Shown here piece after piece: positions 5,515-33,246 of a stretch of DNA of 64,000 nucleotides. Under the pieces are notes generated by a model. It ran no database searches and was not told the DNA's origin. It was given only the letters and a program-made list of their open reading frames with translations. The stretch's first letter is position 1. Each line of letters starts with the position of its first letter. The position numbers and the translations under genes are program-made. This DNA comes from Rhodospirillaceae bacterium (lineage in GTDB: Bacteria > Pseudomonadota > Alphaproteobacteria > SP197), in the NCBI GenBank assembly GCA_002722885.1, contig PBNE01000018.1:3113-67112 (forward strand). Direction: 5' to 3'.

Positions 5515-5520
5515 CTATCC

Positions 5521-7517: not shown

Positions 7518-7534
7518 CGCGCCGCGCCCGTGTT

Positions 7535-7589
7535 TCTAAAATCAAAAGGAAAAAGGAAGAGGGCCGGCTCAAACGTCGGAGCCGGCCCA
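7535..7589 (-). terminator. Intra-operon hairpin plus T-tract (attenuator/terminator) between the binding-protein and ATPase genes
   Basis: GGGCCGGCTC/GAGCCGGCCC 10-bp stem at 7561-7589. On the minus strand it is followed by TCTTCCTTTTTCCTTTTGATTTT. Confidence 0.55.
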
Positions 7590-7609
7590 CCTTACCAGTC
7601 AACAAGCGC

Positions 7610-8680: not shown

Positions 8681-8973
8681 CGCTTTAAGACTCCTCCATT
8701 ACCCTGTTGTGTCCACCGTCCTCTTGGTGAGGTCGAGATGTTCCCTGACGGTGTTCGGTACGCACTTATCTTAACGCCGAACAGGTAGCGATGAAACGAC
8801 CCATTCCCCGCGAATTAGGGCTGGCCGGGGCGTCGAAGCCCGGATTCTTGGATTTCATGATCTTGATCATCAGCGATGACCCCGCTGGGTCTTCCGCACC
8901 ACGGTGCCGATATCAACACCCAGGGCCCGGGCGGTCGCTCGTTTGCTGCCGTGGCGGCGCACGGCATCTTCTA

Positions 8974-9840: not shown

Positions 9841-9855
9841 GTCGTCCTCCTTCGA

Positions 9856-11325: not shown

Positions 11326-11348
11326 GTGAATTCCTCCCCTCGGCCGCT

Positions 11349-12778: not shown

Positions 12779-12794
12779 CGCAAGGGCCGTGCCA
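12779..12794 (-). promoter_or_regulatory. Sigma54 (-24/-12) promoter upstream of the GS-like gene
   Basis: The minus strand reads CTGGCACGGCCCTTGCG, i.e. TGGCAC-N5-TTGC with exact spacing. It lies about 70 nt upstream of the start codon at 12710. Confidence 0.65.
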
Positions 12795-17640: not shown

Positions 17641-18370
17641 CAGACCGGGACATCTTTGCCTTCACCGACCACTCCTATCGCAAGCACGCTTACATGACGG
17701 CCCATGAGTTTGCCGCATTATGGAACAAATAAAGAACTTTCAATTAAGACCCGCCGAATGCAATTCTGACGTGGGTCTCAGGTGACGAAATCAACGAAAG
17801 TGAGATAACAATAAGCGGCGCGGAATGGCGTGGCGATGGACGAGTGACATACCCATTCACCGTCACAGCCGGAGATCTGCCAGTGAGAAGTTTGATGCGA
17901 GCTTCTCTGTTCGTGGATCGCACTGAAATAGGTAGGGGATGATTTCGGCACTTTCCCACTCTGTCTGAGTACTACTCCATCTCATTCAACACTCAACAGC
18001 CTGAGTAGAGTGTGGTGCCTTCCGGCATCTTGGTATTGCAGAAAACGGCACAAGACATCGCAGCACCGCTGAGGTTGGCACCTATGATGATACAATCGAA
18101 GTCAGCCATTTCATTTTACGCTTTAGCGTTTGCGACGAAGTCGCGGGACTCGCTGTGGCGATCGTTGCCCTGAGCCGCCGCCCAGTTGTAGCGAGCGTGC
18201 GCCTGATCCTAGGCTCGTAGAGCTCTCTGGCCGTCTTAAAACATAACGACCTCTATTTATATGTTCCTCGTGTCCACGTCTGATAACGACCATTCTGGAC
18301 GCGATAGTCAAGATACAGTTCGAATCTGTCTCTGACGGCAGTTATTCAAGTCAGTAATTTTAGAGTGATA

Positions 18371-18412
18371 CATCTGCACGCGCCTGAGGTTGGCCTCGGG
18401 CGCGTGCAGATG
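18371..18412 (-). terminator. 19-bp-stem hairpin downstream of the small membrane-protein gene
   Basis: CATCTGCACGCGCCTGAGG-TTGG-CCTCGGGCGCGTGCAGATG (one G-U pair). There is no U-tract, so its terminator role is inferred from position only. Confidence 0.5.
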
Positions 18413-18438
18413 CCATTGGGTAACTTACCCAGTTACGT

Positions 18439-18669
18439 CTACGCTCTCTTTCCTAAGAGATGCAGAATGATAGCGATAGCAACCAGACCAATAACGCCAG
18501 CTCCGCCGAGTTCGGCGACAAGGCCCATAATGTTGCCAGTCACGTCACCGGTGATGAACGCGACATTCTGACCAAAGAGAAGCTGAAGCACGATACCTAG
18601 GGCCAAAAGAGCGAGCCCAATTTCCGTTAACTGCATTACCCAAGATTTAATTTTACCAAGAACATCCAT
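18439..18669 (-). CDS. Small hydrophobic protein (76 aa, two predicted TM helices, basic C-terminus)
   Basis: Consensus AGGAGG Shine-Dalgarno 7 nt before the ATG. Two Gly/Ala/Leu/Ile-rich helices. Followed by a strong hairpin. No family recognised. Confidence 0.6.
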   Translation of the reverse strand: MDVLGKIKSWVMQLTEIGLALLALGIVLQLLFGQNVAFITGDVTGNIMGLVAELGGAGVIGLVAIAIILHLLGKRA

Positions 18670-18876
18670 TTTAAAACCTCCTAGCTAGAGAGTTAGTTGT
18701 TTGATGCACCCTCCAAGGACCTACTATATAGCATATTTAGTAGCGGCGACATCAATTAGTATCCTGCCCCAAAATTGGAGTGCGCGTCAGTTCAAAAGTG
18801 ACACGTCAGCAGAGAGGACTCGGACTTATCGGGAACAATGCTCAGCCCTGGTTGTTGGGAATCGTTCTCAAACCGG

Positions 18877-19642
18877 CTAGCCATGCATGAAGAGGTTCTT
18901 GGAAGCCGGGCTCTCGTAGATGACGAGGCCATTATCCAGACGTGTCATACCAAACCGCACCGGACAGGCATCAAGCAGGCGAAGAATGAACCCATTGCTG
19001 GTACGCGCGGATTCTTCAGCAGCCTTTAGCGATGTGATGTCGTTCCGCAACAGGCCGGCCGATTGCGTCCCTGGATGTGTGGCCGAACAAAGCCTCTGCC
19101 GCCAGATTGAAACCAACGACAATCCCGCTGATGTCGACGGACACGATTCCGTACTGCGAGGCTGCGAGAATGTCATGGTTGAACGCCTCGGTGTGGCGAA
19201 GGGCCTGCTCGGCCTCCTTCTCTGCGGTGATGTCGACCATGCAACCAACATACTCCCGCAGCTTGCCCGCCTCACTGGGCAGAAGGCGTATTTCATCTCG
19301 TAACCAGAGCCACTCATCGGATGCGGTTCTGTAGCGATAGGTCTGATGAATCTGTCGTGTCTCGGGCAGATTGGCGACCTTGGCCTGATAGGCGCCGAGG
19401 TCGTTGGTATGTATCAGACCACGCCCGAGCAACCGGTCCGTCGTGAAGTCGGTGGCCTTGTGGCCTGTGATGCGGGTGACGTTGTCGCTGACAAAGCGCA
19501 ACGGAGCGCCCCGTTCCACGGCATCTTCGGTGGCCTCGATCTCGGCGGTGCAGAAGATCGCTCGTGATTGCGCCACGGCGAAGTCAACAAGGGCCTGTTC
19601 TCTCAGACTTTGCTGCACATCATCGGTGTCAGGTGTGCTCAC
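18877..19642 (-). pseudogene. Truncated, frameshifted multi-PAS sensor protein
   Basis: The PAS-like sequence continues from frame 19016..19642 into frame 18877..19317 (..AIGRPVAE | LLRNDITSLKAAEES..). It ends abruptly inside a PAS fold (..VIYESPASKNLFMHG*) with no output domain. Confidence 0.6.
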
Positions 19643-19775: not shown

Positions 19776-22295
19776 TCAGTGCTTTCCGGACAGGACGATG
19801 TCCGTCGCCTCGGCTGTTGCCAGGGTCAGCGCACGCATGTCCTCAGGCTCGAGATTGTGGAGATTGGTCTTGCCCGTGCAACGCGCCATCATCGACGCCT
19901 CGCCGGACGCCGACTTCAGGATGTTGGCCACGGCATGGCCCCGCTCGTCTTCCGAATGATCCGGAGCAAACGCCAGTTCGTGGTCACCCACGATTTCCGC
20001 ACCCGCAGCAAACGCCACGGTCATGCCCATCACCACGGATTTGGCACCCATGCCGATGATCTTGGCGGCATCGGTTCCCGAGCGCACACCGCCAAACCAC
20101 AGAAGATCGATCTCTTCTTCCTGATTGAGGCGGCGCAGAATGCGGATCGCATCGCGCATCATACTGAGATCGGGCGGCCCCGACAGCTCAGGCCAGTCAC
20201 GACCAAGAGTAGCGTTGCCGTTCAGCAGAAGAACATCGAACTTGTTCTCCAATCCGAACACGATGGCCTCCTCTAGAGCGTCGGCATGAGAGACCGAAAG
20301 ACCCAGAAGCTGATCGTCATGCAGGCGGCCGACGTTTTCGGGCGCCTCGAAGCGGGGCCCGATGACATGAATCTGACCTGCGGCATCGGCACTCGGCGCA
20401 ATCTGGCCGGGAATCACGAGCTGGAGCCACGGCGTCTCATCGTCGATCGGCTGCACACCGATGTAACCACCGGCGGCGCCCTTCATGCCCGCGCCCACAC
20501 CGGCCTTCACGGACGACGGTGCGTTGTCGAAGCCGGTCACGAAGAACGGCTGGGCCACATCCATACGGCCGAAACCGAGATCGGTCGCCACATTGCAGGC
20601 CTCGCGATAGGGATCGATCACCAGACGCGAGAGGTTCGCCGGTAGGAAGACCAGATCGTCGACCGTAGCGACCCGATCCTCCGGGAACGGGTTCTCGCGG
20701 GGACGCAGGCGCTTGGCCAGCATCTTGGCCTGGCGCGCGACATCGGCCTTGTCCATGCGAGCCATGAGGAAGATGTCCTCACGGTTTTGCACGGAATAAT
20801 CCGCCGAACCGGTTTCGGCATCGCAGCGATAGCACCGCGCGGCCTCGGCCTGGGCCTCCTCCCAGGTGTAGGTCGACTCGATCTCCGGGAATTCGACCGG
20901 GTTTTCGCCCACGCCGTGGAACTCGGGGTGGTGAAGCTGGTTGATCTCCCACTTCAGGTCCTGTGCGACCGGCACACGGCGTGTGCGCCACGGTGTCCGG
21001 TAGGGTACTGGACTCTCATCACCGTCGAGGAACGAACGCACGTAATAGGCGACACGCTGGCCATGGCTCATGGCCATCACGATCGTGGACCCGCCAAAGG
21101 CACCGTCACCGGCGGCAAAGACCTTGGGATCACCGGTGCGCATGTTCTCCCAGGCGGTGTCGACCCGGTCGGAACCCATCAGTGCCTTGGTTCCCGCATC
21201 ATCACAGTCACCGAACTGACCGACTGCAGCGATCACCATGCCGCAATCGATGTCGTGCTCAGATCCGGCAATCGGCTCGGGACGGCGGCGGCCGTCATCG
21301 TCGGCTTCGCCCAGACCAGTCTGAACGCAGCGCAGTTTGAGGTTGTCGTCGCCTTCGGCGATCACCTCGACCTGTTGTGTGTTGTAGATGAACTCGATGC
21401 CTTCCTCGATCGCGCCTTCAAGCTCGATCTTCCGCGCGGGGATCTCGTCGGGCCCACGGCGGTAAACAACTTTGACCTTCTCGCAGCCCGGCAGTCGAAG
21501 GGCGGCACGGCATGCGTCCATCGCCACGTCACCACCGCCGATCACAACCACGGTCTTGGGCATCTGGGGCCGCTCGCCACCGTTGATCCGGCGCAGGAAC
21601 TCCACGCCGTCCACGACGCGGCTGTCGTCCTCGCCGGGAATGCCCATCTTCTTGCCCCACCAGGAGCCGATGGTCAGGACTACTGCATCATGGCGCTGCT
21701 TGAGCTCATCCAGCGAAACATCGCGACCCAGCCCGGTGTTGGTGTGGATCGTGAGACCCGGGCACCGCGCCATCAGGCGGTTCATATCTTCTTCGATCGT
21801 GCCTGCCGGAAGCCGGAAGGCCGGAATACCCCATATCATCATGCCGCCGGCGCGGTCAGTCATCTCATAGACGTCGACCTTGAAGCCCGCCACGGTGAGA
21901 TTATGCGCCGCAACCAGGCCCGCGGGACCTGCACCGACAATGCCGACACTCTGCTCGCGCGTCACAGGTGCAGCCTCGGGCGTCCAGGTCGCGCCGAGCT
22001 TGTCCATGACAAATCGCTTGAGATTACGGATCTGGAGGGCGCCATCGCTCGCCTCACGGCGGCAGGCAGGTTCACAAGGCGCATCACAGACACGACCACA
22101 GATCGAACTGAACGGATTGGTCGCCGTGATTGCCTCGAAGGCTTCGTCGAACTGGCCGTTCCAGATGTAGCCGATGTATGACGGCGCATCGGTGCCCACC
22201 GGGCAAGCGATCTGGCAGGGCGCGGGAACGTAGTGCTTGTCGCCGGCCGCACCGATCTGGTCGGTAGGCATCAGGTTCGCGTTGGTTTCGGTCAT
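19776..22295 (-). CDS. Fusion protein: GltD-like Fe-S/FAD-NAD(P)H oxidoreductase plus a C-terminal glutamate-synthase-type TIM-barrel-like domain (839 aa)
   Basis: The N-terminal half carries Cys clusters (CQIACPVGTD.., CGRVCDAPCEPAC) and two GxGxxG folds (VGIVGAGPAGL, VVVIGGGDVAMD), like the GOGAT small subunit. The C-terminal about 350 aa (VDDLVFLPANLSRL...GGVRSGTDAAKIIGMGA) resembles the FMN-domain family. Confidence 0.85.
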   Translation of the reverse strand: MTETNANLMPTDQIGAAGDKHYVPAPCQIACPVGTDAPSYIGYIWNGQFDEAFEAITATNPFSSICGRVCDAPCEPACRREASDGALQIRNLKRFVMDKLGATWTPEAAPVTREQSVGIVGAGPAGLVAAHNLTVAGFKVDVYEMTDRAGGMMIWGIPAFRLPAGTIEEDMNRLMARCPGLTIHTNTGLGRDVSLDELKQRHDAVVLTIGSWWGKKMGIPGEDDSRVVDGVEFLRRINGGERPQMPKTVVVIGGGDVAMDACRAALRLPGCEKVKVVYRRGPDEIPARKIELEGAIEEGIEFIYNTQQVEVIAEGDDNLKLRCVQTGLGEADDDGRRRPEPIAGSEHDIDCGMVIAAVGQFGDCDDAGTKALMGSDRVDTAWENMRTGDPKVFAAGDGAFGGSTIVMAMSHGQRVAYYVRSFLDGDESPVPYRTPWRTRRVPVAQDLKWEINQLHHPEFHGVGENPVEFPEIESTYTWEEAQAEAARCYRCDAETGSADYSVQNREDIFLMARMDKADVARQAKMLAKRLRPRENPFPEDRVATVDDLVFLPANLSRLVIDPYREACNVATDLGFGRMDVAQPFFVTGFDNAPSSVKAGVGAGMKGAAGGYIGVQPIDDETPWLQLVIPGQIAPSADAAGQIHVIGPRFEAPENVGRLHDDQLLGLSVSHADALEEAIVFGLENKFDVLLLNGNATLGRDWPELSGPPDLSMMRDAIRILRRLNQEEEIDLLWFGGVRSGTDAAKIIGMGAKSVVMGMTVAFAAGAEIVGDHELAFAPDHSEDERGHAVANILKSASGEASMMARCTGKTNLHNLEPEDMRALTLATAEATDIVLSGKH

Positions 22296-22309
22296 GGCCT
22301 TGGTCTCTC

Positions 22310-24262
22310 TTAACCCGCCGCTTGGAACAGCTCTGCGTTCCGGCGTTCGGACTCATAGGGCAATCCAGTGATCTCGGCGGCTTCCGGTGTCAGGGCGACG
22401 AGATCGTCGCGCGACAGGCCTGTCACGTTGCTGTGGCCGAGCGCCTTGGTGATCGCGGCAATCTGCCAGCGCACACTCTCCAGGAAGGTGTAAATGTGCT
22501 GGGCCTCGACCTGTGACTTGTAACGCCGCTCGTGCTCGGGATCCTGCGTCGCGATGCCGGTCACACACTGGCCGACATGACACTGCATGCAGGCGATACA
22601 ACCGCCGGCGATGATGGCCGCGGTGCCCAGCGCGATGGCATCAGCTCCCAGGCACAGGCCCTTCACGGCGTCGATACCGTCACGCAGCCCGCCCATCAGA
22701 ACGATCTCGATATCCTGGCGACGGCCGATGCTGGCGAGTGCTGTCTCGGCCTCGCAGATCGCGGCCAGGGTCGGAATGCCGACATACTCCATGACCTCGG
22801 CACCACCGGCACCGGTCGAGCCCTGCATGCCGTCGAGTTCGACAAAGTCGAAGCCGTCCTTCACCGCGATCTTGATATCGTCGTGGATACGGCCCGCACC
22901 CAGCTTCACGCTGACCGGCAGGCGGTATCCCGTGGCCTCGCGCAGCTCCTCGACTTTGATGACAAGATCGTCCGCACCGAGGATGTCCGGATGGCGTGAA
23001 GGCGAACGCAGGTCGATACCGGCCGGAATGCCGCGGATCTCCGCCAGTTCCTTGGTCACCTTCTTGGCCATGAGCTGGCCACCGAAGCCCGGCTTCGCGC
23101 CTTGGGAGATGTAGATCTCCAGGCCGTCGGCACGGTTCATATCGTGAATGTTCCAACCCAGGCGTCCGCCCAGCATCTGGAAGATCAGCTGGCCGGCCGC
23201 ATCGCGCTGGGCGTCGCTCATGCCGCCCTCGCCCGTGTTTTCGGCAATGCCCGCCATACCCGAGGCGATGGCGATGGCCTGCTTGGCCGAGCGCGACAAG
23301 GCACCATAGCTCATCGGTGCGATCAGCACCGGCATGGTCAGGTCCAGCGGATTGGCGCCGTTCTTGCCGCCGATTTTGGTGTGCATTTCGACATCACCGA
23401 CGGGATCGTCTCCAATCGCAGCCATGGTGATGTCCTTGCGGAAGGCGATGTCGGCCAGATGCGGCAGCTCACGTGCGCCGCCGTACCCGCGCACACGGTA
23501 CCGGCCGATCTGCGACTTGATATAGACGTCTTCCTGGATTTTGCGATTCCAGTAGTCGCTATCGCCCGAGAAGTTGAAGTAGGGGATCGAGCGCATCTGA
23601 CGCTCTGATGTTCCGTAGCGGAGCTTCTTGCCCGCGTTGACGACCTTCTTAAACGTTCCCTTGAAGGGGATCTCGTAGCGGTCGAGGAACTCCATGATCT
23701 CGTCGGCTTCAGCCGAATCCATGTCGGTCAGTTCGGCATCCGAACCCAGGGAGTTCAACTTGCCGCCCAGGAAAATCTCTCCACCTGACATGTCTTCACC
23801 TAGGCGCTCACCGGATTCACCCAGGATGATCATGCGGCCGCCGTACATCATGTAGCCGGCCATGAAGTTGGCATTGCCACAGCACAGCAGCGTGCCCTTC
23901 TTCATCACCTGGCCGGCACGACTGCCCATGTTGCCCTTGATCACCAGTTCGGCGCCGCGAATCGCGACACCGGCAATGGCTCCGGCGTTGCCGCCAACAA
24001 CGACCGAGCCGCGGTACATGTTGTCGGCCACCCCCCAGCCCACATTGCTTTCCACATGAAAGCGCGGCGTATCGGTCAACCCGGCCAGGAAATATCCGGC
24101 CGATCCGCGGACATGGATATCCACGGGGTGGATGACGCCCACGCCAATATGATGGCGGGCATCGGGGTTCAGAACCTCGATGCTTTCGCCCTGGCTGGCT
24201 GCTTCGCGGATCCGCTCGTTGGCCTCGCGAATCTCAAGGTCGCTCAGGTCAATCGTGACCAT
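22310..24262 (-). CDS. Fusion of a GXGXG (GltB C-terminal-like) domain and an FMN-dependent glutamate synthase central domain (650 aa)
   Basis: The N-terminal 230 aa hold repeated G-x-G motifs (GSAGYF.G, GNAGAIAG, GNMGSRAG, GNANFMAG). The C-terminal part has LIAPMSYGALS, NTGEGG, GAKPGFGGQL and a Cys cluster CIACMQCHVGQC. Confidence 0.88.
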   Translation of the reverse strand: MVTIDLSDLEIREANERIREAASQGESIEVLNPDARHHIGVGVIHPVDIHVRGSAGYFLAGLTDTPRFHVESNVGWGVADNMYRGSVVVGGNAGAIAGVAIRGAELVIKGNMGSRAGQVMKKGTLLCCGNANFMAGYMMYGGRMIILGESGERLGEDMSGGEIFLGGKLNSLGSDAELTDMDSAEADEIMEFLDRYEIPFKGTFKKVVNAGKKLRYGTSERQMRSIPYFNFSGDSDYWNRKIQEDVYIKSQIGRYRVRGYGGARELPHLADIAFRKDITMAAIGDDPVGDVEMHTKIGGKNGANPLDLTMPVLIAPMSYGALSRSAKQAIAIASGMAGIAENTGEGGMSDAQRDAAGQLIFQMLGGRLGWNIHDMNRADGLEIYISQGAKPGFGGQLMAKKVTKELAEIRGIPAGIDLRSPSRHPDILGADDLVIKVEELREATGYRLPVSVKLGAGRIHDDIKIAVKDGFDFVELDGMQGSTGAGGAEVMEYVGIPTLAAICEAETALASIGRRQDIEIVLMGGLRDGIDAVKGLCLGADAIALGTAAIIAGGCIACMQCHVGQCVTGIATQDPEHERRYKSQVEAQHIYTFLESVRWQIAAITKALGHSNVTGLSRDDLVALTPEAAEITGLPYESERRNAELFQAAG

Positions 24263-25155
24263 GTGTTGTAACTTCCCGGCGGTGGTTCACGGGTGTCGAG
24301 TGCCTGACCCGGGAACAGCCGGTTCAGCGACACCTCTTCGGATGCAATGGCGATGAGATCATCGTTCTCGAACATGATCATCGGCTTGGCGGCCAGACGA
24401 TCCTTGGCGTAACCGATCTCTTCCTTGGTCGAGACTAGGAACGAGAACGTGCCGTCCATGTCGTCAATCGAAGTCTTCAGCGCTTCCTTGAGCTCGATGC
24501 CATGGCTCATCTTGTCGGCCAGGTAGACTGCCAGAAGCTCGCTGTCATTGTCGGTCGCGAACTCGAAGCCACGGCGCTCAAGACGGCGGCGCATCTTCCA
24601 ATAGTTGGTGATCTGGCCGTTGTGGACGATCGCGACATCGGAGAAACCGGTGGCCCAGAACGGATGAGACGCTTCGGGCTCAACATCGGATTCGGTCGCC
24701 AGGCGCACATGGCCCAGGCCATGGGTACCCTTGAAGACATGGACGTCATAGACGTCGTCGACATCGTGGGCACCACCGATATCCTTGACGATCTCGAGGC
24801 TTTCGCCGATCGACATGGTCTTGGCGGCATGTTCGACCGCATAGGAGAACTTCTGGAGATCGCCGCCGAAACGCACGATCACTCGGTAGGCACCGCCGAT
24901 GCGCTCATCCTCGACAATCTCTGCACCGTGCTCGTCGAACACGGCCTTCAGGCGATCAATCGCGTCACCGGCCTCGTTGTCGTTGCCGACATAGAAACGC
25001 AACTTCAGCTGACCCTGGTTGTCGTCGCCATAAAGGGCGAATCCGGTGGAGTCAGGGCCGCGATGCTGACAGCCGTCTAGCATGTCGATCAGCGCACGAC
25101 CCGTGTCGACGGTGGTACCGTCGCGCTTCAACAAAATCCCTGCGATACCGCACAT
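24244..25155 (-). CDS. Class II (Ntn) glutamine amidotransferase, GltB-N-terminal/GlxB/MgsA-like
   Basis: The mature N-terminus MCGIAGIL provides the catalytic Cys right after Met, as in Ntn amidotransferases. About 300 aa. 19-nt overlap with the downstream gene. Confidence 0.88.
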   Translation of the reverse strand: MCGIAGILLKRDGTTVDTGRALIDMLDGCQHRGPDSTGFALYGDDNQGQLKLRFYVGNDNEAGDAIDRLKAVFDEHGAEIVEDERIGGAYRVIVRFGGDLQKFSYAVEHAAKTMSIGESLEIVKDIGGAHDVDDVYDVHVFKGTHGLGHVRLATESDVEPEASHPFWATGFSDVAIVHNGQITNYWKMRRRLERRGFEFATDNDSELLAVYLADKMSHGIELKEALKTSIDDMDGTFSFLVSTKEEIGYAKDRLAAKPMIMFENDDLIAIASEEVSLNRLFPGQALDTREPPPGSYNTWSRLT

Positions 25156-27077: not shown

Positions 27078-27719
27078 TCAGGTCTCGTCGGTCACATAGT
27101 TTGACCGAAGATCGACCGGCGAGATAACCCAGATGAACGTTGCCACGTCGGGTCCGGCATTGAAGAATCGGTGCGGCAGCGTGCGTGGGAAGGAATAACT
27201 GTCGCCGGCCACCAGCACAAAGCTCTCTCCGTCGATGGTCAGATCAACCGTTCCGTCGAGGATGTAACCAGCTTCCTCACCGCGATATGTGTAAGCATCA
27301 TCGCCGGTCGATCCCTGGGGCTCCAGATTGGTCAGACCCATCGCCAGATTGCTGTCGACATTGGTCGACAACAGAAAGTCGCTCATACCGAGATAGTCGG
27401 TGAATCCCATATCGGAGTATGCAATCCGACGACGGTTGCGGGCCCGAACGATGTAGCGCTGCTCCTTGGGATCGACATCGTCTCCGGGAGGGAAAAACCA
27501 GCCGACATCGACACCCAAGGCCTCGCTGATGATCTGAAGCACACCGGCCGAAGGCTTGGTGATATCCCGCTCGACCTGGCTCAGGTAGCCGATCGACTTG
27601 TGGGTCTTCTCCGCAAACTCGGTCAGCGTCATGCCCTTGACCTTGCGCAAGGCACGGATTTCGGCTCCCAGAGAGAGGATCCCGTTGAACTGCCGGTCAG
27701 GCTTTTTGGCGGTGGCCAC
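27078..27719 (-). CDS. XRE-family HTH plus cupin transcriptional regulator (PuuR-like)
   Basis: HTH LGAEIRALRKVKGMTLTEFAEKTHKSIGYLSQVERD, with a C-terminal cupin (YTYRGEEAGYILDG...GDSYSFP..LPHRF). GTG 27719 was chosen because ATG 27872 would overlap the upstream gene by 80 nt. Confidence 0.8.
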   Translation of the reverse strand: MATAKKPDRQFNGILSLGAEIRALRKVKGMTLTEFAEKTHKSIGYLSQVERDITKPSAGVLQIISEALGVDVGWFFPPGDDVDPKEQRYIVRARNRRRIAYSDMGFTDYLGMSDFLLSTNVDSNLAMGLTNLEPQGSTGDDAYTYRGEEAGYILDGTVDLTIDGESFVLVAGDSYSFPRTLPHRFFNAGPDVATFIWVISPVDLRSNYVTDET

Positions 27720-27792
27720 GTCGGTGTTTCCGGTTACAGAGCGACACGGCACCCATCCTAGAGCTTCAGGCACACCGCCGCAAAGCGGCTGT

Positions 27793-29592
27793 TCACAACC
27801 AGTCGGACTGTGTGTCCAGAACCGTTGGGTCGCCCAGTTCCGTCGGAGCAAGCCAGGCACGGGCAGGACCAAGTTCGTGCTTCACCATGTAACGCATGGC
27901 CTGCACCTTGCCGCGATAAAACAGGTCATCGTCAGCGCTGCAGCCGGTTTCGAGCGCCTGATGCGCAATCGCCGCCTGACGCAGCCACAACGCCGCGACG
28001 ACATGATGGCCAAAGCCGTAAAGAAACGTCGTGGCATGTGCCAGTGCCAGCGCGATGTGGCCCTCACCCAGTCGCGAACGCGCGGCATCAAGAGTGTCCG
28101 AGACGGCACTCCAGCCTTCGCGCACAACCGAAGCTTCATTTGTGAACCCGGCAGCATCTGCCTCCTGGGCCATGGATTCGATGTCTTCCGACAGAACCTG
28201 GAAACAAGCCCCCCCATCCATCATGGCCTTGCGCCCAAGCAGGTCCAGGCCCTGAATGCCCTGCGTGCCTTCGTGAATGGGGTTGAGCCGGTTATCGCGG
28301 TAAAGCCGCTCGACCGGAAAATCCCGGGTGTAGCCGTAGCCGCCATGTACCTGGATCGCCAGGCTGTTCGCCTCAAGGCCGAAATGGCTGGGCCAGGCCT
28401 TGGCGATCGGCGTGATGATGTCGAGCAGCTGTTTGGCCCGCTTACGGTCCTGTTCGCTCTCTGCCGTCTTTTCGTGATCGACCATCATGCCGCACCACAG
28501 GCCAAGGGCCAGACCTCCCTCCACATAGACCTTCTGCTGCAACAGCATGCGGCGGACATCGGGATGATCGACGATCGGAATCGGCGGCGATGTCGGGTCA
28601 CGACCGTCAAGCGGCCTCCCCTGCCTGCGTTCCCGCGCATAGGCCAGAGAATGGAGATAGCCGGAATATCCCAGCATCGTGGCGCCCAGGCCGACCCCGA
28701 TCCTGGCCTCGTTCATCATGTGAAACATGGCGATCAGACCGCGGTGCGGCTCACCCACCAGCTCGCCGATAGTCTCGCCCTTCTCACCGAAGTTCAGCAG
28801 GCAGTTGGTGATGCCGCGATAGCCCATCTTGTGGTTAAGGCCGGCGAGTTCGATGTTGTTGATCTCGCCAGGCCGGCCTTCGTCGTCCAGCCGATACTTC
28901 GGCACGACGAAGAGCGAGATCCCCTTCACGCCCGGCGGTGCATCGGGAAGCTTAGCCAGCACAAGATGGACGATATTCTCGGCCAGCTCATGCGCGCCGC
29001 CCGAAATCCACATCTTGTTGCCGGTGATGGCATAGGTGCCGTCGCCACGCGGCGTCGCCCGCGTACGGATATCGGCCAACGATGAACCAACGTCGGGTTC
29101 CGAAAGGCACATGGTGCCGAAGAACCGTCCCTCGTTCATCGGCGCCATGTACCGTTGCTTCTGTTCCTCGGTGCCGTGTGCTTCCAAAAGATTGGCCGCC
29201 GCCCGTGTCAGCAGCAGATAGCCGGTGGTCGAAACGTTCGCTCCCTTGAACAGGGCTGCGCAGGCCTGGCCCACGGTGAACGGAAGTTGCATGCCGCCCA
29301 GCTCTTCATCGAACGTTGCCGCAAAGAAACCGGCTTCGCGCAACTGCTCGAGCGCCGCACTGGTCTCAGGAATCTGCACAACCTTGCCGTCGGCCACAAA
29401 CGGTTCTTCGACATCGGCCCTTGCCGCATGGGGCTGCAAATGTTCGTCGGCCAGCCGGAACGCAAGATCGATCACAGCGTCAAACGACACACGATCGTGC
29501 ATGGCATAACGCGGCCGTTTCGCCAGCCGATCGGCCCCGAACACCTCGTAGAGCAGAAAATCGAGGTCCCGCCTGTTGCACACGGTCGACAT
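27793..29592 (-). CDS. Long (about 600 aa) acyl-CoA dehydrogenase, AidB/DmdC-like
   Basis: FFGTMCLSEPDVGSSL, KMWISGG, and a C-terminal extension typical of the long ACAD clade. ATG 29592 avoids overlap with the upstream gene. Confidence 0.88.
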   Translation of the reverse strand: MSTVCNRRDLDFLLYEVFGADRLAKRPRYAMHDRVSFDAVIDLAFRLADEHLQPHAARADVEEPFVADGKVVQIPETSAALEQLREAGFFAATFDEELGGMQLPFTVGQACAALFKGANVSTTGYLLLTRAAANLLEAHGTEEQKQRYMAPMNEGRFFGTMCLSEPDVGSSLADIRTRATPRGDGTYAITGNKMWISGGAHELAENIVHLVLAKLPDAPPGVKGISLFVVPKYRLDDEGRPGEINNIELAGLNHKMGYRGITNCLLNFGEKGETIGELVGEPHRGLIAMFHMMNEARIGVGLGATMLGYSGYLHSLAYARERRQGRPLDGRDPTSPPIPIVDHPDVRRMLLQQKVYVEGGLALGLWCGMMVDHEKTAESEQDRKRAKQLLDIITPIAKAWPSHFGLEANSLAIQVHGGYGYTRDFPVERLYRDNRLNPIHEGTQGIQGLDLLGRKAMMDGGACFQVLSEDIESMAQEADAAGFTNEASVVREGWSAVSDTLDAARSRLGEGHIALALAHATTFLYGFGHHVVAALWLRQAAIAHQALETGCSADDDLFYRGKVQAMRYMVKHELGPARAWLAPTELGDPTVLDTQSDWL

Positions 29593-30321: not shown

Positions 30322-31281
30322 GTGGTGACTGTCATCGAACGATTGCGCGGCGGCAAGGCGGTCGTGCTGGACGGTGCGAACGGCACCGAGCTTGAAGAAC
30401 GCGGTGCGCCGCAGACCTCCGACGCGGCCTGGGCCGATTGCAGTGCCACCCATCCGGAGATCGTGCGCGCGGTCCATGAGGACTACATCCGCGCCGGCGC
30501 CGACATCATCACCACCAACACCTACTCCACCGGCGCCCATGTTCTGCGAACGATGGGGCGCGACGAGGTTATTGCACCCTGGAATCGCGCCTCTGTCGAC
30601 ATTGCGCGCAACGCGATCAACAACACAGCCCGGGGTCGCGAGGTTCTTGTCGCGGGATCCGCCTCGCCCTTCGGCAACGGGGCGATGCGCTATCCGAGCA
30701 TGGACGGCGCCTTTACCTGGGGTGAAGACGATCCCAACCTGCTTGCCGCGAACTACCGGGAGCAGATCGGTCACCTGGTTGAGGCAGGGATCGATCTCAT
30801 TCTGCTCGAGTTTCTTGCCGGGACCGCTGCCGACATCGAGATCGGTGTCGCCGTGGCGCGGGAGTTCGACAGGCCCGTCGTCGCGTCGCTGAGCGCAACC
30901 ATCGACGACCAGGGCACGGCGATCCTCACCAGCATCTCCGAAGCCAGTGAGGTCACGCTCGGGCATGAGACCGTGACCGACACCGTCCAGCGTATTGCGG
31001 GTTCGGGCGTCGACGCGATCTACGCCATGCATTCGGAGATCGACGAGATCGACGCCATTCTGGCGGCCATTCGCGCCGCATGGCACGGCCCGCTGGGCGC
31101 CTATCCTAACAGGACCGGATACTGTGATGGCAGCCAATGGGTTTTCACAGAGCAGGTGACACCGCAGGGCTACGCCGCCCGGGTGCAACGCTGGACCGAA
31201 CTGGGGGCAACCATGATCGGCGGCGGCGGCGGCACCACACCGGCCATGATCGAAGCCGTGGCTGGAACCCTCAAACACTAG
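30322..31281 (+). CDS. Homocysteine S-methyltransferase family protein (MmuM/BHMT-like)
   Basis: VVLDGANGTELE at the N-terminus, TNTY, and C-terminal GGCCGTTP-like IGGGGGTTPAMI. In the canonical family the last motif is Cys-rich (GGCCG), so the zinc site here looks atypical. Confidence 0.8.
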   Translation: MVTVIERLRGGKAVVLDGANGTELEERGAPQTSDAAWADCSATHPEIVRAVHEDYIRAGADIITTNTYSTGAHVLRTMGRDEVIAPWNRASVDIARNAINNTARGREVLVAGSASPFGNGAMRYPSMDGAFTWGEDDPNLLAANYREQIGHLVEAGIDLILLEFLAGTAADIEIGVAVAREFDRPVVASLSATIDDQGTAILTSISEASEVTLGHETVTDTVQRIAGSGVDAIYAMHSEIDEIDAILAAIRAAWHGPLGAYPNRTGYCDGSQWVFTEQVTPQGYAARVQRWTELGATMIGGGGGTTPAMIEAVAGTLKH

Positions 31282-33242
31282 ATTGCCATCGCGGCCTGAA
31301 GCCCTTCGACAACGGCTTCTTCTGCCGTTCGCGGCGACAACACGTCACCGATCACGTGGAGCTCGCCTGACCAGCTTTCCCGGAGTTCATCGAGCAGGGC
31401 CGAATCCCGCCTGTGGCCCTGGGCCAGGACGAGAGTCTCGACCTCCTCGGCAACCAGGGCTTCACCGTTGGTCATGTGCTGGAAAAACACGCTGTCGTCA
31501 TCGGCCCCGAACAGGCGGGCGTAGGACCTGGTCTCGACGCCCAGGCTGTCGAGCACGCCGATCCAGTGATCCCGCAGATAGGCCTGAAGGTTCTGGCCGG
31601 GCTGCGTGCCCTGGCAGTAAAGCCGAACGTGGCAGCCGTTCCGAGCCAGCATCTCAGCCACGCCCATGCCAACCCAGTCGCAGCGCCAGTCCGCAATCAC
31701 GACCTGCCCGCCGACATTGGCTTCACCGCTGATGACAGGCCACGCATCCACGGCATGCACCTCATCCAGCCCGTCGAGCGCCGGCAAATAAGGCATCGCA
31801 CCGGTGGCCACCACAACGGCGTCGGGCTCAACGGCCGCGACCATGGCCGCATCAACAGCCACGCCCTTCTTCACCGTGACACCCGCGAGTTCCATCTCGC
31901 GGCTGAGATTAGTGACGATCCCGCCGAACTCGGCACGATCCGGCAGCATCTGGGCCAAGCGGACCTGCCCGCCCAACTGATTGTCCTTCTCATAGAGCGT
32001 CACCTCATGACCGCGTTCAGCCGCAATCGCCGCGGCCTTCATGCCACCGGGTCCACCGCCTATCACCATGACCTTGCGGACCGTGGCTGTCTTCTCCTTG
32101 GCATGGGGGAAGGTCCGTTCGCGGCCGGTCTCCGGATGCTGGATACACGAGACGATCGCACCCATGTGCCGGTGGCCGATGCAGGCCTGATTGCAGGCGA
32201 TGCAGGCACGTATGTCGTCCGGCCGGCCGTCTTCGGCCTTGGCAGCAAAGAAAGGATCGGCAATCAGGGCGCGCACCAAACACACCATATCGGCCTGGCC
32301 CGAGCCGATGATCTGCTCAGCCGTCTGCGGCTGGTTGATCCGGCCTCCGAGCATCGTGGGCACAGACACGGACTGCTTCAGCGTCGCGGCCGGATCGGCC
32401 AGGTACCCCTGCTCGACAAACATCGGCGGCACGATGTGAACCGCCCCGCCGACCGAGGCACCGGAACCGCCGATGACGTTGACGTAGTCGATCAGCCCGG
32501 CGTCGGCGAGCGCCTTGGCCACAGCACTGCTCTCTTCCTGCGACAACCCGCCATAGTCCAGTTCGTCGACGGAGATCCGGATGCCGACCACGGTCTTGCT
32601 GTCGACCGAAGCACGGATGGCAGCGAGAGATTCCGTCACGAACCGCATCCGGTTCTCGAAGCTGCCGCCGTAGGTGTCGGTCCGCTGATTGGCGCGCGGA
32701 TTGACGAACTGGGCCGGCAGATAGCCCATCGAAATCATGTATTCGACACCGTCGAGCCCCGCCTCAGCCATGCGCCGTGCGCCGTCGCCGTAGGACCGGA
32801 TTATGTCCCGGATCATCGCTTCGGACATCGGGGCGGGCATCACGTGGTGACGCTCATCCGGCAGCTCCGACGGCGCATAGGCCGCGAGCAGCGCACCGTT
32901 CTTCCGGTTCGCAACGGCGCGGCCGGGGTGAAAGAGCTGCCCGAACATGCGGGCGCCATGCTTGTGGGCCACGCCCGCCATCTCCCGAAGTTCGGGAATG
33001 GCGTCATCGTCGCTCACGGCCAGCAGGTTGTGCCGCACCTCATAACTCTCATGCACCGTATGGGCCTCGGTGATGATCAGCCCCACGCCCCCCTGTGCGC
33101 GCGCCTCATGATAGGCCACGAGATCAGGCATGGTGCCCGGAGCGCGGCCCTGGCTGGTGCCGTGCGGCCCGAAAATCACCCGGTTCTTCATTTCGAGGGC
33201 GCCCAATTCGATGGGCTGGAAGAGATGCGGAAACCTGGTCAT
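31278..33242 (-). CDS. NADH:flavin oxidoreductase (OYE domain + 4Fe-4S + FAD/NAD(P) domain), StcD/DgcA-like N-methyl amino-acid demethylase family, paralogue 1
   Basis: FPHLFQPIELGALEMKNR (OYE N-terminus), CIACNQACIGH...C Fe-S motif, VMVIGGGPGGMKAA dinucleotide fold. 654 aa from ATG 33242. Confidence 0.88.
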   Translation of the reverse strand: MTRFPHLFQPIELGALEMKNRVIFGPHGTSQGRAPGTMPDLVAYHEARAQGGVGLIITEAHTVHESYEVRHNLLAVSDDDAIPELREMAGVAHKHGARMFGQLFHPGRAVANRKNGALLAAYAPSELPDERHHVMPAPMSEAMIRDIIRSYGDGARRMAEAGLDGVEYMISMGYLPAQFVNPRANQRTDTYGGSFENRMRFVTESLAAIRASVDSKTVVGIRISVDELDYGGLSQEESSAVAKALADAGLIDYVNVIGGSGASVGGAVHIVPPMFVEQGYLADPAATLKQSVSVPTMLGGRINQPQTAEQIIGSGQADMVCLVRALIADPFFAAKAEDGRPDDIRACIACNQACIGHRHMGAIVSCIQHPETGRERTFPHAKEKTATVRKVMVIGGGPGGMKAAAIAAERGHEVTLYEKDNQLGGQVRLAQMLPDRAEFGGIVTNLSREMELAGVTVKKGVAVDAAMVAAVEPDAVVVATGAMPYLPALDGLDEVHAVDAWPVISGEANVGGQVVIADWRCDWVGMGVAEMLARNGCHVRLYCQGTQPGQNLQAYLRDHWIGVLDSLGVETRSYARLFGADDDSVFFQHMTNGEALVAEEVETLVLAQGHRRDSALLDELRESWSGELHVIGDVLSPRTAEEAVVEGLQAAMAI

Positions 33243-33246
33243 GCCA

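Follow-up and report, generated by a model that had tools for sequence, protein, structure and literature searches.

The glutamate synthase (GOGAT) GltBD (EC 1.4.1.13; Azospirillum brasilense, PDB 2vdc/6s6s) combines a single large subunit, with amidotransferase, central, FMN and GXGXG domains in that order, with the small subunit GltD, which carries two [4Fe-4S] clusters, FAD and an NAD(P)H site. The central domain of GltB is viewed as an accessory barrel that arose by duplication of the synthase barrel (PMC8097209). In MgsABC, the equivalent of GlxBCD (EC 2.1.1.21; Aminobacter, Methylobacterium and the Rhizobium glnT-glxBCD clusters), amidotransferase, GXGXG domain and FMN barrel are separate proteins encoded in that order, and the genes lie in the neighborhood of gmaS and mgdABCD. 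For the proposed reaction, in which gamma-glutamylmethylamide and 2-oxoglutarate give N-methylglutamate (NMG) and glutamate, the electron donor is unknown (PMC6237917). GltD-like modules also occur in dihydropyrimidine dehydrogenase (DPD; pig, PDB 1h7w; bacterial PreT/PreA), where an Fe-S/FAD/NADPH module precedes an FMN-type (beta/alpha)8 barrel that is DHODH-like, with a 2x[4Fe-4S] domain at the C terminus, and in homologues of the NfnB, NfnABC and sulfide dehydrogenase type (PRK12771, PRK12814), which pair with ferredoxin-like or NfnA partners.

A three-gene operon with the parts of a glutamate synthase

The window analyzed here, a 64,000-nucleotide stretch of DNA from an uncultured marine alphaproteobacterium, is an island of genes for the catabolism of methylated amines. 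It contains an operon of three tightly packed genes which, like all genes and domains given by coordinates below, are located on the minus strand: an amidotransferase gene (24244-25155; 303 aa), a gene for a fusion of GXGXG and FMN synthase domains (22310-24262; 650 aa) and a gene for a GltD-type reductase with an extra C-terminal barrel, TIM2 (19776-22295; 839 aa). The first two genes overlap by 19 nucleotides (24244-24262), and a gap of 14 nucleotides (22296-22309) separates the second from the third. This three-way partition is exactly that of the original prediction, made from the sequence of the window, and the domains it had assigned to each protein were upheld by Pfam boundaries and, for the C-terminal barrel, by profile alignment. 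Marine metatranscriptome contigs cover each of the three genes and the two junctions between them; the genes flanking the trio had zero coverage in the same search. We tentatively regard the three proteins as a single multisubunit enzyme with a glutamate synthase mechanism, although with slightly less than even confidence.

Domain and motif searches recovered the full set of GOGAT redox-chain parts, and the catalytic parts are the same as those of GltBD: a GltD module, a GXGXG domain, the Ntn amidotransferase and an FMN barrel that shares with GltB both its 2-oxoglutarate loop and the site of an Fe-S motif. Instead of one large subunit, however, the trio consists of three proteins and has the GXGXG domain before the FMN domain; the amidotransferase is of the small GlxB type (PF13522/PF13537) rather than GATase_2, the synthase cluster motif has four cysteines rather than three, and both the fusion of TIM2 to GltD and the circular permutation of GltD set the trio apart. 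The nearest sequence relative is MgsABC (35 to 38% identity), which shares the gene order of the trio, but the equivalents of MgsB and MgsC, separate there, are fused here, and canonical mgs clusters contain neither TIM2 nor a reductase. The GXGXG-FMN order, originally described as permuted, was found as stated but amounts to no more than a fusion in the gene order glxC-glxD (mgsB-mgsC). It had also been considered that this might be the known architecture of an archaeal-type NADPH-GOGAT; no characterized enzyme of that type with this architecture was found in the PDB or the searchable literature, and for archaeal split-GOGAT open reading frames the literature search gave only statements that they exist (PMC8097209).

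Amidotransferase and synthase subunits

The 303-aa protein, which starts with MCGIAG and matches GATase_6/7 in Pfam, is a class II (Ntn) amidotransferase of the GlxB/MgsA type, with Cys1, the motifs RGPDS, HNGQITN and DNDSE, and 35% identity to Aminobacter MgsA. It has the Cys1 N-terminal nucleophile of a glutamine amidotransferase, as does GltBD, the subtype being that of GlxB. In the 650-aa protein, residues 1 to 225 (23588-24262) form the GXGXG beta-helix domain, equivalent to GlxC/MgsB, with a match to PF01493 at residues 35 to 166, FwdC-like NCBIfam matches and 35% identity to MgsB. The FMN synthase barrel (residues ~235 to 640; 22343-23560), equivalent to GlxD/MgsC and to the FMN domain of GltB, matches Glu_synthase (PF01645) at residues 302 to 610 (E 7e-92) and the alpha chains of GltS in the PDB (E 1e-40), and it is 38% identical to MgsC.

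The barrel has retained GEGG and the 2-oxoglutarate/iminoglutarate loop QGAKPGFGGQL...R (Q387 to R410; 23033-23104), where the GGQL of GltB stands in place of the GGML seen in MgsC. A putative Fe-S ligand motif, C555-x2-C558-x2-C561-x4-C566 (22565-22600), lies where GltB binds its [3Fe-4S] cluster. All three positions of the GltB motif C-x5-C-x4-C are cysteines, and all four cysteines are invariant across the family of TIM2-associated synthase barrels, which also carries GltB-like NTGEGG, GGRLG, GGQL and GxTGA motifs. In contrast, the four canonical MgsC/GlxD sequences examined have GDGG, GGML and GGTAA, and no cysteines at the cluster site, where an insertion is found instead. Where the active sites of MgsC and GltB diverge, the residues found here are GltB-like, which is equally compatible with ammonia or glutamine as the substrate.

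In a neighbor-joining tree of synthase barrels, those associated with TIM2 fall together in a single clade whose sister is MgsC/GlxD; their identity is 37 to 43% to MgsC and 28 to 33% to GltB. Canonical MgsC/GlxD barrels are 80 to 87% identical among themselves, and the barrel of the trio did not group with them. Because the clade has kept a four-Cys motif at the site of the GltB cluster, along with GltB-like active-site motifs, it is predicted to be wired for external electrons, as in GOGAT.

Reductase module and extra barrel

Pfam matches Fer4_20 and Pyr_redox_2 at residues 25 to 412 of the 839-aa protein and, weakly, FMN_dh at residues 718 to 766. The GltD-type module (residues 25 to 425; 21021-22223) comprises Rossmann folds for FAD and NAD(P)H and six of the eight [4Fe-4S] cysteines, and it shares 35% identity with Klebsiella GltD across residues 27 to 424 (BLASTP). 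The last two cluster cysteines are found in a segment ending in EAARCYRC (residues 467 to 491; 20823-20897), to which a second BLASTP segment aligns residues 26 to 50 of GltD and where Fer4_20 positions 7 to 60 are matched. Counting this segment, all eight cysteines are present, and the protein has the sequence features of a GltD small subunit, namely, ligands for two [4Fe-4S] clusters and folds for FAD and NAD(P)H. The GltD module is itself circularly permuted, its N-terminal RCxxC segment being placed after the Rossmann domains. Foldseek matches the module to A. brasilense GltD (TM 0.75, rmsd 3.5 A) and to NfnB; by structure as well as by profile, NfnB-type homologues match best (residues 24 to 495), extending to the segment after the Rossmann domains, with scores for the 839-aa protein that are below the NCBIfam cutoffs (390 versus 516 bits and 375 versus 916 bits). 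Unlike those homologues, the reductase of the trio accompanies a synthase barrel.

The likeness to electron-bifurcating NfnABC/NfnB subunits, together with the methylated-amine catabolic setting, would suit an oxidative enzyme, a glutamate or N-alkylglutamate dehydrogenase that releases 2-oxoglutarate and amine and passes electrons to NAD(P)+ or bifurcates them in the manner of NfnB. We consider this highly improbable, since an intact Cys1 amidotransferase, translationally coupled and with conserved hydrolytic motifs, is sensible only for the synthetic direction, and since ATP-dependent ligases co-occur with the cassette. A reductive mechanism of the GOGAT type is the probable one.

TIM2 (residues ~500 to 839; 19779-20798) aligns with the 650-aa family over 321 columns (hhalign probability 99.1%, E 8.6e-19), and AF2 models it as a (beta/alpha)8 barrel with a core pLDDT above 90. 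All 25 TIM2 family members match PF01645, while 10 of the 25 match PF01180, weakly; the originally proposed kinship with the FMN barrel of the synthase was thus confirmed, and the idea that the extra domain might be unrelated to it can be dropped. TIM2 lacks the GEGG motif, the 2-oxoglutarate loop and the cluster cysteines; its best-conserved parts are the N- and C-terminal segments (LSRLVIDPYRE, ARCTGKTNLHNLEPEDMR). What is retained is an FMN-phosphate-type motif, GGVRSGTDAAK (G735 to K745; 20061-20093), which aligns with the motif at beta7 in GltB and in flavocytochrome b2. G735, G740 and D742 (G265, G270 and D272 in domain numbering) are invariant in both TIM2 alignments, and conservation is complete or reaches at least 90% at G736, R738, A744 and K745. 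In GltB the accessory barrel is the central domain and in the trio it is TIM2; PF04898, the central domain, has no match in any trio protein or in the 25 TIM2 members, and the TIM2 profile aligns to GltB only over the beta7-beta8 region of the FMN domain. TIM2 is a degenerate, though full-length, duplicate of the synthase barrel with only the phosphate-binding motif left, and it looks noncatalytic. We think that it anchors the complex and, in the lineage of the window, tethers GltD to the synthase. The strict conservation of the phosphate motif suggests ligand binding rather than a mere scaffold, which counts against an anchor-only role.

That motif, near-invariant as GG(V/L)RSGTDAAK, could also mark a second active site for FMN or another phosphorylated cofactor, in which case the 839-aa protein would be a self-contained, DPD-like reductase beside a redox-neutral pair resembling N-methylglutamate synthase. 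DPD has the same order of GltD module and FMN-type barrel, and no other solved chain aligns over the two parts; in addition, genes for F420 biosynthesis or an FrhB-like gene adjoin the cassette in two related loci (L029 and L028). Foldseek aligns about 900 columns, but the overall superposition is poor (rmsd 17 to 24 A), and TIM2, as a degenerate Glu_synthase-like barrel without catalytic residues, has lost the isoalloxazine and substrate contacts of its parent (GEGG, the Lys/Gln loop and GGTGA). Moreover, there are forms of TIM2 that lack GltD and are joined to the synthase protein instead, and the cluster motif of the synthase barrel would be pointless in a redox-neutral enzyme. We therefore find a second active site unlikely. 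As for an identity with DPD or PreTA itself, neither a PF01180 barrel with the catalytic Cys loop nor, in Pfam, a ferredoxin domain was found in the 839-aa protein, and this candidate was rejected.

Family distribution and genomic context

Relatives of the cassette were found in 354 species-level genomes. All 80 related loci are bacterial, and in each of them with a complete contig the genes of the cassette are colinear. Fusions of TIM2 to GltD account for 62 loci and fusions to the synthase protein for 18, and it is free-standing in some; the hallmark of the family, and its constant addition, is TIM2 rather than GltD. Its presence with the cassette in several architectures constitutes a Rosetta-stone link. 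No reductase gene was found near the GXGXG-FMN-TIM2 forms, which counts against the proposed electron chain in those loci. While the subunit design is indeed nonstandard, as had been predicted, it is not unique, belonging to a widespread, conserved and apparently unstudied family.

An XRE regulator with 55 to 68% identity to that of Aminobacter lies upstream of the trio in 35 loci, a gmaS orthologue (60 to 65%) directly downstream in 8 and Sox/Mgd-like genes nearby in 14 to 17, in the gene order of the Aminobacter XRE-mgsABC-gmaS-mgdABCD cluster. In many loci, then, the trio takes the place of mgsABC, flanked by the shared regulator and gmaS, and mgd-like genes are close by. In the window, no gmaS orthologue (best match, 27 to 29%) and no mgd are present, and the HTH_3 plus cupin (PuuR-like) regulator upstream of the cassette (27078-27872), whose membership in the unit is uncertain, is only 28% identical to the XRE regulator of the NMG clusters. 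Since neither the window nor its closest relatives (L001 to L015) have gmaS, an NMG-type regulator or mgd within reach, the alkylamide reading is transferred to them from more distant members.

The two GS-like genes placed about 7 kb away in the original prediction were found at 9856-12710. GS1 (9856-11325) and GS2 (11349-12710) resemble GmaS-type gamma-glutamyl-amine ligases and have Trp at the Glu-flap position, as do all GS-like neighbors examined; by the residue criteria of PMC7948447, most of these also have the GmaS-type D-H-E-D pocket, which GS2 of the window lacks. A perfect TGGCAC-N5-TTGC motif at 12780-12794, just upstream of the pair, agrees with the predicted sigma54 promoter. GS1 orthologues (60 to 63%) lie beside the trio in four other loci (L026, L028, L049 and L053), and it is from this conserved proximity that we tentatively link the pair to the trio; GS1 and GS2 could supply the amide donor.

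These neighborhoods bear on whether the trio is, rather, a glutamine-dependent NAD(P)H-GOGAT of GlxBCD descent and alternative architecture that serves ordinary ammonium assimilation and, in methylamine clusters, reassimilates the nitrogen released there, possibly after a Sox-like enzyme has demethylated gamma-glutamylmethylamide to glutamine. The GltB-like catalytic motifs (GEGG and GGQL), the Fe-S cluster motif and the complete GltD module would fit such an enzyme, as would the situation in the subclade of the window, where the cassette stands alone among varying neighbors, with Amt as the adjacent gene in L001 and L010; in L085, it is near GDH-PII-Amt. In L026 the trio and canonical mgsABC share one gene string, which argues against simple functional equivalence and suggests a nonredundant role, and in the window in situ transcription covers the trio but not the catabolic genes around it. 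On the other hand, the recurring ligase partner is of the GmaS type (Trp for the flap Glu, and the GmaS Asp) and not a true GS, Amt does not discriminate because it flanks canonical mgs/gmaS clusters too, and the shared NMG-type regulator and mgd-like genes would require an extra, undocumented activity. An ordinary GOGAT is hence a serious possibility, if a doubtful one.

Proposed reaction and its meaning

Our preferred reading, which we advance tentatively as somewhat short of an even bet, is that the trio is an NAD(P)H-driven (alkyl)amide transferase with a GOGAT mechanism, an electron-fed sister of the cluster-less MgsABC. We infer that NAD(P)H would reduce the FAD of the GltD module and that electrons would then travel by way of its two [4Fe-4S] clusters to the four-Cys cluster of the 650-aa subunit and on to the FMN of that subunit. 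The 303-aa amidotransferase would hydrolyze a gamma-glutamyl amide, and the freed amine would be channeled to the synthase barrel and condense with 2-oxoglutarate to an imine, the reduction of which would yield glutamate or N-alkylglutamate. The original suggestion of an NAD(P)H-linked synthase for either product agrees with the retained Fe-S ligands, the GltB-like motifs and the replacement of mgsABC in gmaS/mgd clusters. An alkylamide donor may well be ancestral in the family, although we would not quite call it probable. In loci beside gmaS and mgd-like genes, the expected reaction is that of gamma-glutamylmethylamide, 2-oxoglutarate and NAD(P)H to N-methylglutamate and glutamate. In the window, the donor may be a different one, as gmaS and mgd are lacking there; it is perhaps glutamine or the product of GS1 and GS2.

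The family of the trio could answer the electron-donor question of N-methylglutamate formation, and it may show how some bacteria move the nitrogen of ammonia or methylamine into glutamate.

Domain content of the three-gene cassette

All three genes of the cassette were found on the minus strand exactly where they had been predicted, with a 19-nt overlap between the amidotransferase ORF (303 aa; 24244 to 25155) and the GXGXG-FMN ORF (650 aa; 22310 to 24262) and a 14-nt gap between the latter and the GltD-TIM2 ORF (839 aa; 19776 to 22295). The first product, starting with MCGIAG, is a class-II amidotransferase (Pfam and NCBIfam), and its Ntn amidotransferase domain is intact. The second consists of a GXGXG beta-helix (residues 35 to 166) followed by a Glu_synthase FMN barrel (residues 302 to 610; E = 7e-92), and the third of a Fer4_20 plus Pyr_redox_2 module (residues 25 to 412), beyond which some 340 residues gave a weak match to FMN_dh (Pfam); in an NCBIfam search of all three proteins, nothing exceeded the cutoff. 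Among solved structures, the FMN domains of GltS large subunits match the 650-aa barrel (E = 1e-40), and comparison with these structures showed that the barrel retains both a set of cysteines at the [3Fe-4S] site and the loop for 2-oxoglutarate (QGAKPG-GGQL-R). The PDB yielded no characterized match for the trio, the hits being GltS FMN domains, FwdC beta-helices, flavocytochrome b2-type oxidases, and NfnB, GltD, and DPD only. A complete set of GOGAT redox parts is present in the trio.

Over its first 425 residues, the 839-aa protein is 35% identical to Klebsiella GltD (BLASTP). A second alignment segment places GltD residues 26 to 50, with the first two cluster cysteines (the first C-x2-C), at residues 467 to 491 (window positions 20823 to 20897), behind the Rossmann domains; the GltD module is thus complete, with eight cysteines, but circularly permuted. 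The NCBIfam models PRK12771 and PRK12814 also align through the relocated segment, to about residue 491 to 495. When an AF2 model of the whole 839-aa chain (pLDDT 81.8) was used as a Foldseek query, NfnB and NfnABC subunits were matched, as was A. brasilense GltD (TM 0.75; rmsd 3.5 Å), and dihydropyrimidine dehydrogenase aligned across both halves with a poor superposition.

The TIM2 barrel and its distribution

The C-terminal domain of the 839-aa protein, TIM2, was studied in two alignments of diverse copies (A1 and A2). All 25 members match PF01645 (best E = 8.7e-13) and PF01070, and hhalign against the 650-aa family paired TIM2 residues 27 to 366 with synthase residues 235 to 637, the whole barrel (probability 99.1%; E = 8.6e-19). 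The AF2 model of TIM2 is a (beta/alpha)8 barrel (core pLDDT > 90), and the solved structures closest to it in fold are FMN-dependent 2-hydroxy-acid oxidases, in agreement with the sequence profile. Relative to the parent barrel, GEGG, the entire 2-oxoglutarate loop, GGTGA, and all cluster cysteines are absent; the beta7/beta8 phosphate-binding motif GG(V/L)RSGTDAAK...GA is near-invariant in both alignments. Conservation peaks toward the start of the domain, in LSRLVIDPYRE, and toward its end, in ARCTGKTNLHNLEPEDMR; these stretches were modeled with low confidence in the monomer, which hints at, but does not prove, subunit interfaces there.

The central domain of GltB is thought to be the product of a synthase-barrel duplication. 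We rejected TIM2 as a homologue of that domain for want of sequence support, as none of the 25 members matches the corresponding family (PF04898); in addition, when two full GltB sequences were compared with the TIM2 profile by hhalign, the FMN beta7-beta8 region alone was picked up (probability 6%). The two may be functionally analogous; the Foldseek top 50 of the TIM2 model contained no GltS chain. A TIM2 search of 1.84 billion representative proteins returned only 355 at E ≤ 1e-3, so that TIM2 is a small, distinct family out of the reach of canonical GltB. On sequenced plasmids we found no TIM2 orthologues; what matched there was the C-terminal half of GlxD/MgsC, partially and at 32%.

Full-length relatives of the 839-aa architecture number more than 120 (64 to 90% identity) and are named in databases only as "FAD-dependent oxidoreductase" or "glutamate synthase." A relative is encoded in 354 stretches (one genome per species), the best 80 of which come from uncultured marine Alphaproteobacteria (mostly Rhodospirillales), one Acidiferrobacterales metagenome-assembled genome (MAG), Acidimicrobiia, Thermoleophilia, Latescibacterota, Desulfobacterales, and Syntrophobacterales. 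In all loci with enough flank, the amidotransferase and GXGXG-FMN genes lie directly upstream, in the same order. Cultured carriers include Desulfosarcina variabilis, Desulfatitalea alkaliphila, Desulfobacter curvatus, and Desulfospira joergensenii, and the cassette is also present in complete genomes such as OZ242015.1, OZ243917.1, OZ244839.1, and CP159846.1. TIM2 is fused behind GltD in 62 loci, at the C terminus of the GXGXG-FMN protein in 18 (e.g., 1025 aa in Desulfosarcina variabilis), none of which has a reductase gene nearby, and free-standing beside a fused GXGXG-FMN gene (locus L085) or split genes (locus L086). A 1486-aa protein, matched by the query in an FMN-barrel region (482 to 556) and a C-terminal TIM2 (1117 to 1477), is as long as the 650- and 839-aa proteins joined and may be such a fusion. 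Since TIM2 occurs behind GltD, behind the synthase, or on its own, TIM2 rather than GltD is the constant extra part of the family, and its varying fusion partners link it in function to the synthase.

Relation to GltB and N-methylglutamate synthase

On plasmids of cultured bacteria, the annotated sequences closest to the 650-aa protein are neighboring genes for a GXGXG and an FMN-binding protein in Rhizobium, Paracoccus, Aminobacter, and Acinetobacter, with approximately 35 to 38% identity. In Aminobacter niigataensis, a textbook N-methylglutamate (NMG) cluster runs XRE regulator-mgsA-mgsB-mgsC-gmaS-mgdABCD, amid serine-cycle genes, with gmaS annotated as glnT, type III; identity to the window proteins is 35% for MgsA, 35% for MgsB, and 38% for MgsC. 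The original prediction had described the GXGXG-FMN order as circularly permuted relative to GltB; it is simply that of mgsB and mgsC, fused.

In a neighbor-joining tree of synthase barrels (no bootstrap, few outgroups), all TIM2-associated barrels, regardless of gene fusion and of the presence of GltD, fell into one clade, sister to canonical MgsC/GlxD and with GltB outside. The canonical barrels (four carriers: loci L084, L087, L088, and L026) have no cysteine at the GltB cluster site, contain an insertion of about 16 residues (GDNDP...DDWHEG), and show the motifs GDGG, PSRYG, GGML, and GGTAA, whereas in the TIM2 clade four cysteines are invariant (C-x2-C-x2-C-x4-C) and the motif states are GltB-like (GEGG, GGRLG, GGQL, and GxTGA). 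In the literature searched, we found no statement on the missing Fe-S cysteines of canonical NMG synthase barrels. The phylogenetic position of the TIM2 clade suggests that the NMG synthase lineage has lost the Fe-S ligand motif and that MgsC is a derived, cluster-less branch. We also compared 53 positions at which GltB and MgsC are each fixed for another residue and the TIM2 clade is fixed as well: 23 were MgsC-like, 15 GltB-like, and 15 neither, and the GltB-like ones were located at catalytic and cofactor motifs. Together with the motif states, this split points to an MgsC-like scaffold equipped with GOGAT-like redox and active-site machinery, which would fit the classical description (Pollock and Hersh), according to which NMG synthase is reportedly a redox-neutral flavoenzyme.

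A GOGAT-type reductive mechanism of the trio is, in our view, probable. Electrons would pass from NAD(P)H via FAD and two [4Fe-4S] clusters to the synthase cluster and on to FMN; the amidotransferase would hydrolyze a gamma-glutamyl amide and channel the amine to 2-oxoglutarate, the resulting imine would be reduced, and TIM2 may act as a structural or docking module. The cautious reading first proposed, an NAD(P)H-linked synthase for glutamate or an N-alkyl-glutamate, is supported by redox parts, motifs, and synteny.

Gene neighborhoods and the amide donor

Flanking ORFs of 84 loci were clustered, and recurrent clusters were annotated. In 35 loci, an XRE/cupin regulator (55 to 68% identical to that of the Aminobacter NMG cluster) immediately precedes the amidotransferase gene, and in eight alpha- and gammaproteobacterial loci (L016, L025, L026, L028, L029, L031, L049, and L053), a gmaS orthologue (60 to 65% to Aminobacter GmaS) directly follows the trio; a more distant GS-like gene (34 to 43%) is found in about 30 further loci. 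By the residue criteria of the GmaS crystal-structure paper (PMC7948447), every GS-like neighbor examined, including the window genes GS1 and GS2, has a Trp at the flap-glutamate position of true GS, and most have the GmaS-type Q-x-D-H-E-D...E-x-N pocket, which GS2 lacks. The TIGR03105 call ("type III glutamine synthetase") of a Desulfosarcina neighbor was dropped as evidence for a true GS, since bona fide gmaS genes carry the same name at NCBI and both the Trp and the Asp typical of GmaS are present in the protein. Similarly, the proximity of Amt (17 loci) was dropped as evidence for GS/GOGAT because the canonical mgs-gmaS clusters of Paracoccus and Acinetobacter adjoin Amt genes too.

Genes resembling heterotetrameric sarcosine oxidase or Mgd (an alpha subunit of Fer2_4, Pyr_redox_2, SO_alpha_A3, and GCV_T, a DAO-type beta subunit, and delta and gamma subunits) are present in 14 to 17 loci, mostly of Syntrophobacteraceae and Desulfobacterales but also of Thermoleophilia and Acidiferrobacterales. 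The Syntrophobacteraceae order, regulator-amidotransferase-GXGXG/FMN-GltD/TIM2-soxB-D-A-G-like, is that of a canonical NMG cluster with the trio replacing mgsABC. On account of such neighborhoods, we tentatively favor, at somewhat below even likelihood, gamma-glutamylmethylamide as the ancestral donor of the family, with N-methylglutamate and glutamate as products. Glutamine as the donor is a somewhat less likely alternative, in favor of which speak the GltB-like active-site residues of the TIM2 clade, the stand-alone context in the subclade to which the window belongs, and the co-occurrence of trio and mgsABC in one Rhodospirillales MAG (L026). There, a single gene string (L026:4271-15029) holds an NMG-type regulator, a TIM2-type trio, canonical mgsABC (54%, 57%, and 84% identity, the last being that of MgsC to Aminobacter), and gmaS, so that both synthase types lie side by side, which warns against simple equivalence. 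Combining either donor scheme with a demethylase of the Sox/Mgd type and a GmaS-type ligase yields the same net stoichiometry, and context alone therefore cannot separate the two. In its fullest form, the gamma-glutamylmethylamide reading makes the cassette a "methylamine GOGAT," i.e., an NAD(P)H-driven (in GltD-less forms, ferredoxin-driven) gamma-glutamylmethylamide:2-oxoglutarate methylaminotransferase that forms N-methylglutamate without ammonia release, with TIM2 as a pseudo-enzyme; as a whole, we consider this proposal rather unlikely.

Several further neighbors deserve mention. A YbaK/ProX-like aminoacyl-tRNA editing gene (tRNA_edit) lies beside the cassette in 15 loci, in Deltaproteobacteria and Alphaproteobacteria alike (L067:11069-11536, L001:12526-13053, and 13 others), and could guard against mischarging with a pathway-made glutamine or glutamate analogue. 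In an anaerobe-like genome (L085:3487-10532), a nonpyrrolysine MttB-family methyltransferase gene directly precedes amidotransferase-GXGXG/FMN-free-standing TIM2-GS-like, a further link of the cassette to methylated-amine metabolism; this cassette adjoins GDH-PII-Amt. In two marine Rhodospirillales MAGs, F420 biosynthesis genes (cofE, cofC, and fbiC-like) lie directly upstream of regulator-trio-gmaS (L029:35-4993) and an FrhB/FdhB-like gene lies downstream of the cassette (L028:14938-16203). An F420 link is thus conceivable, but F420 dependence was set aside because it would rest on just two loci.

Surroundings and transcription of the cassette

The region occurs at full identity in marine metagenomes, and among genomes, alphaproteobacterial MAGs come closest to it (87 to 90% identity); the source of the window is an uncultured marine bacterium. 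The surrounding 64 kb looks like a catabolic island for methylated amines and osmolytes: the genes at 31278 to 38673 and 45763 to 47832 include three OYE plus Pyr_redox_2 demethylase-like genes, resembling trimethylamine dehydrogenase, DgcA, or StcD, and three Rieske oxygenase alpha-subunit genes in a row (35208 to 38673), and elsewhere there are a choline-dehydrogenase-like GMC enzyme, an aldehyde dehydrogenase, a sulfatase, and hydantoinase A/B. Links to homarine catabolism or the TmaR regulon were discarded, both being unrelated to the cassette.

As predicted, a sigma54 promoter motif precedes the GS-like ligases: a perfect -24/-12 consensus, TGGCACGGCCCTTGC (12780 to 12794, minus strand), lies 70 nt upstream of the GS2 start and heads an apparent operon of GS2, GS1, a PhyH dioxygenase, SBP_bac_8, an ABC ATPase, and two permeases (4669 to 12710). 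A scan for sigma54 and sigma70 promoters and terminators around the trio gave nothing above chance. The window and its closest relatives (loci L001 to L015) contain no gmaS orthologue, NMG-type regulator, or mgd genes, and the window's HTH-cupin gene is just 28% identical to the NMG-type regulator. The one observation from which we infer a link between the trio and the nearby GS1 and GS2 is that GS1 orthologues (60 to 63%) lie a few kilobases from the trio in L026, L028, L049, and L053.

In a metatranscriptome from the same sample as one of the metagenomes, contigs cover all three trio genes and span both junctions (22191 to 22465 and 24197 to 24599), while the flanking genes have zero coverage despite even DNA coverage. 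This indicates that the trio is transcribed in situ as a unit, with the proviso that expression is poorly reflected in contig depth and that carried-over DNA may contribute. Separately, a low-GC, empty-looking stretch (17985 to 18721), flanked by the aldehyde dehydrogenase gene on one side and a PAS-domain ORF on the other, is covered by a metatranscriptome contig at about 10 times the depth of the trio (62 versus 3 to 9); it contains small ORFs only, one of them encoding a hydrophobic 76-aa product (18439 to 18669, minus strand), and an Rfam scan of the highly transcribed gap (17.3 to 19.8 kb) found no match. The PAS-domain ORF (19016 to 19642, minus strand), just downstream of the 839-aa gene, looks truncated or frameshifted (18877 to 19642), with an overlapping second ORF (18877 to 19317) and lower local GC (0.546).

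Implications

Glutamate synthase and the NMG pathway are the main gates by which ammonium and methylamine nitrogen enter bacterial metabolism, and methylated amines form a sizeable nitrogen pool in the ocean. In the searchable literature, we found no description of the cassette, of TIM2, or of a reductase-linked NMG synthase relative, and none in the PDB. Because the trio is built from known parts and, we believe, works like a known enzyme, it is not categorically new; what is new is the conserved fourth module, the permuted and fused GltD, the four-cysteine cluster site, and the phylogenetic position. For enzyme evolution, the family clearly illustrates how duplication of a catalytic barrel gave rise to a conserved noncatalytic partner, which is fused to different subunits by lineage.

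The electron donor of the proposed GOGAT-like step of the NMG pathway is an acknowledged gap (PMC6237917). With a built-in reductase and Fe-S relay, absent in canonical MgsC, the TIM2 family makes this question testable with defined genes, and it suggests an unrecognized methylamine route in sulfate-reducing and syntrophic anaerobes. Were the "methylamine GOGAT" proposal true, it would supply the long-missing reductant of that step. In combination with Sox/Mgd-like dehydrogenases and GmaS-type ligases, it would also give marine Alphaproteobacteria a closed path by which methylamine nitrogen reaches glutamate; strictly anaerobic Desulfobacterales and Syntrophobacterales would gain pyrrolysine-independent methylamine use, with the methyl group passed to tetrahydrofolate, and TIM2 would be a pseudo-enzyme barrel born of catalytic-barrel duplication, a living analogue of the origin of the GltB central domain. 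The reading of "gmaS-positive" genomes and metagenomes would change as well, since the cassettes currently carry no annotation beyond "FAD-dependent oxidoreductase" or "glutamate synthase family protein." If the trio is instead an ordinary glutamine-dependent GOGAT, it would still represent a fourth architectural type, common in uncultured marine bacteria.
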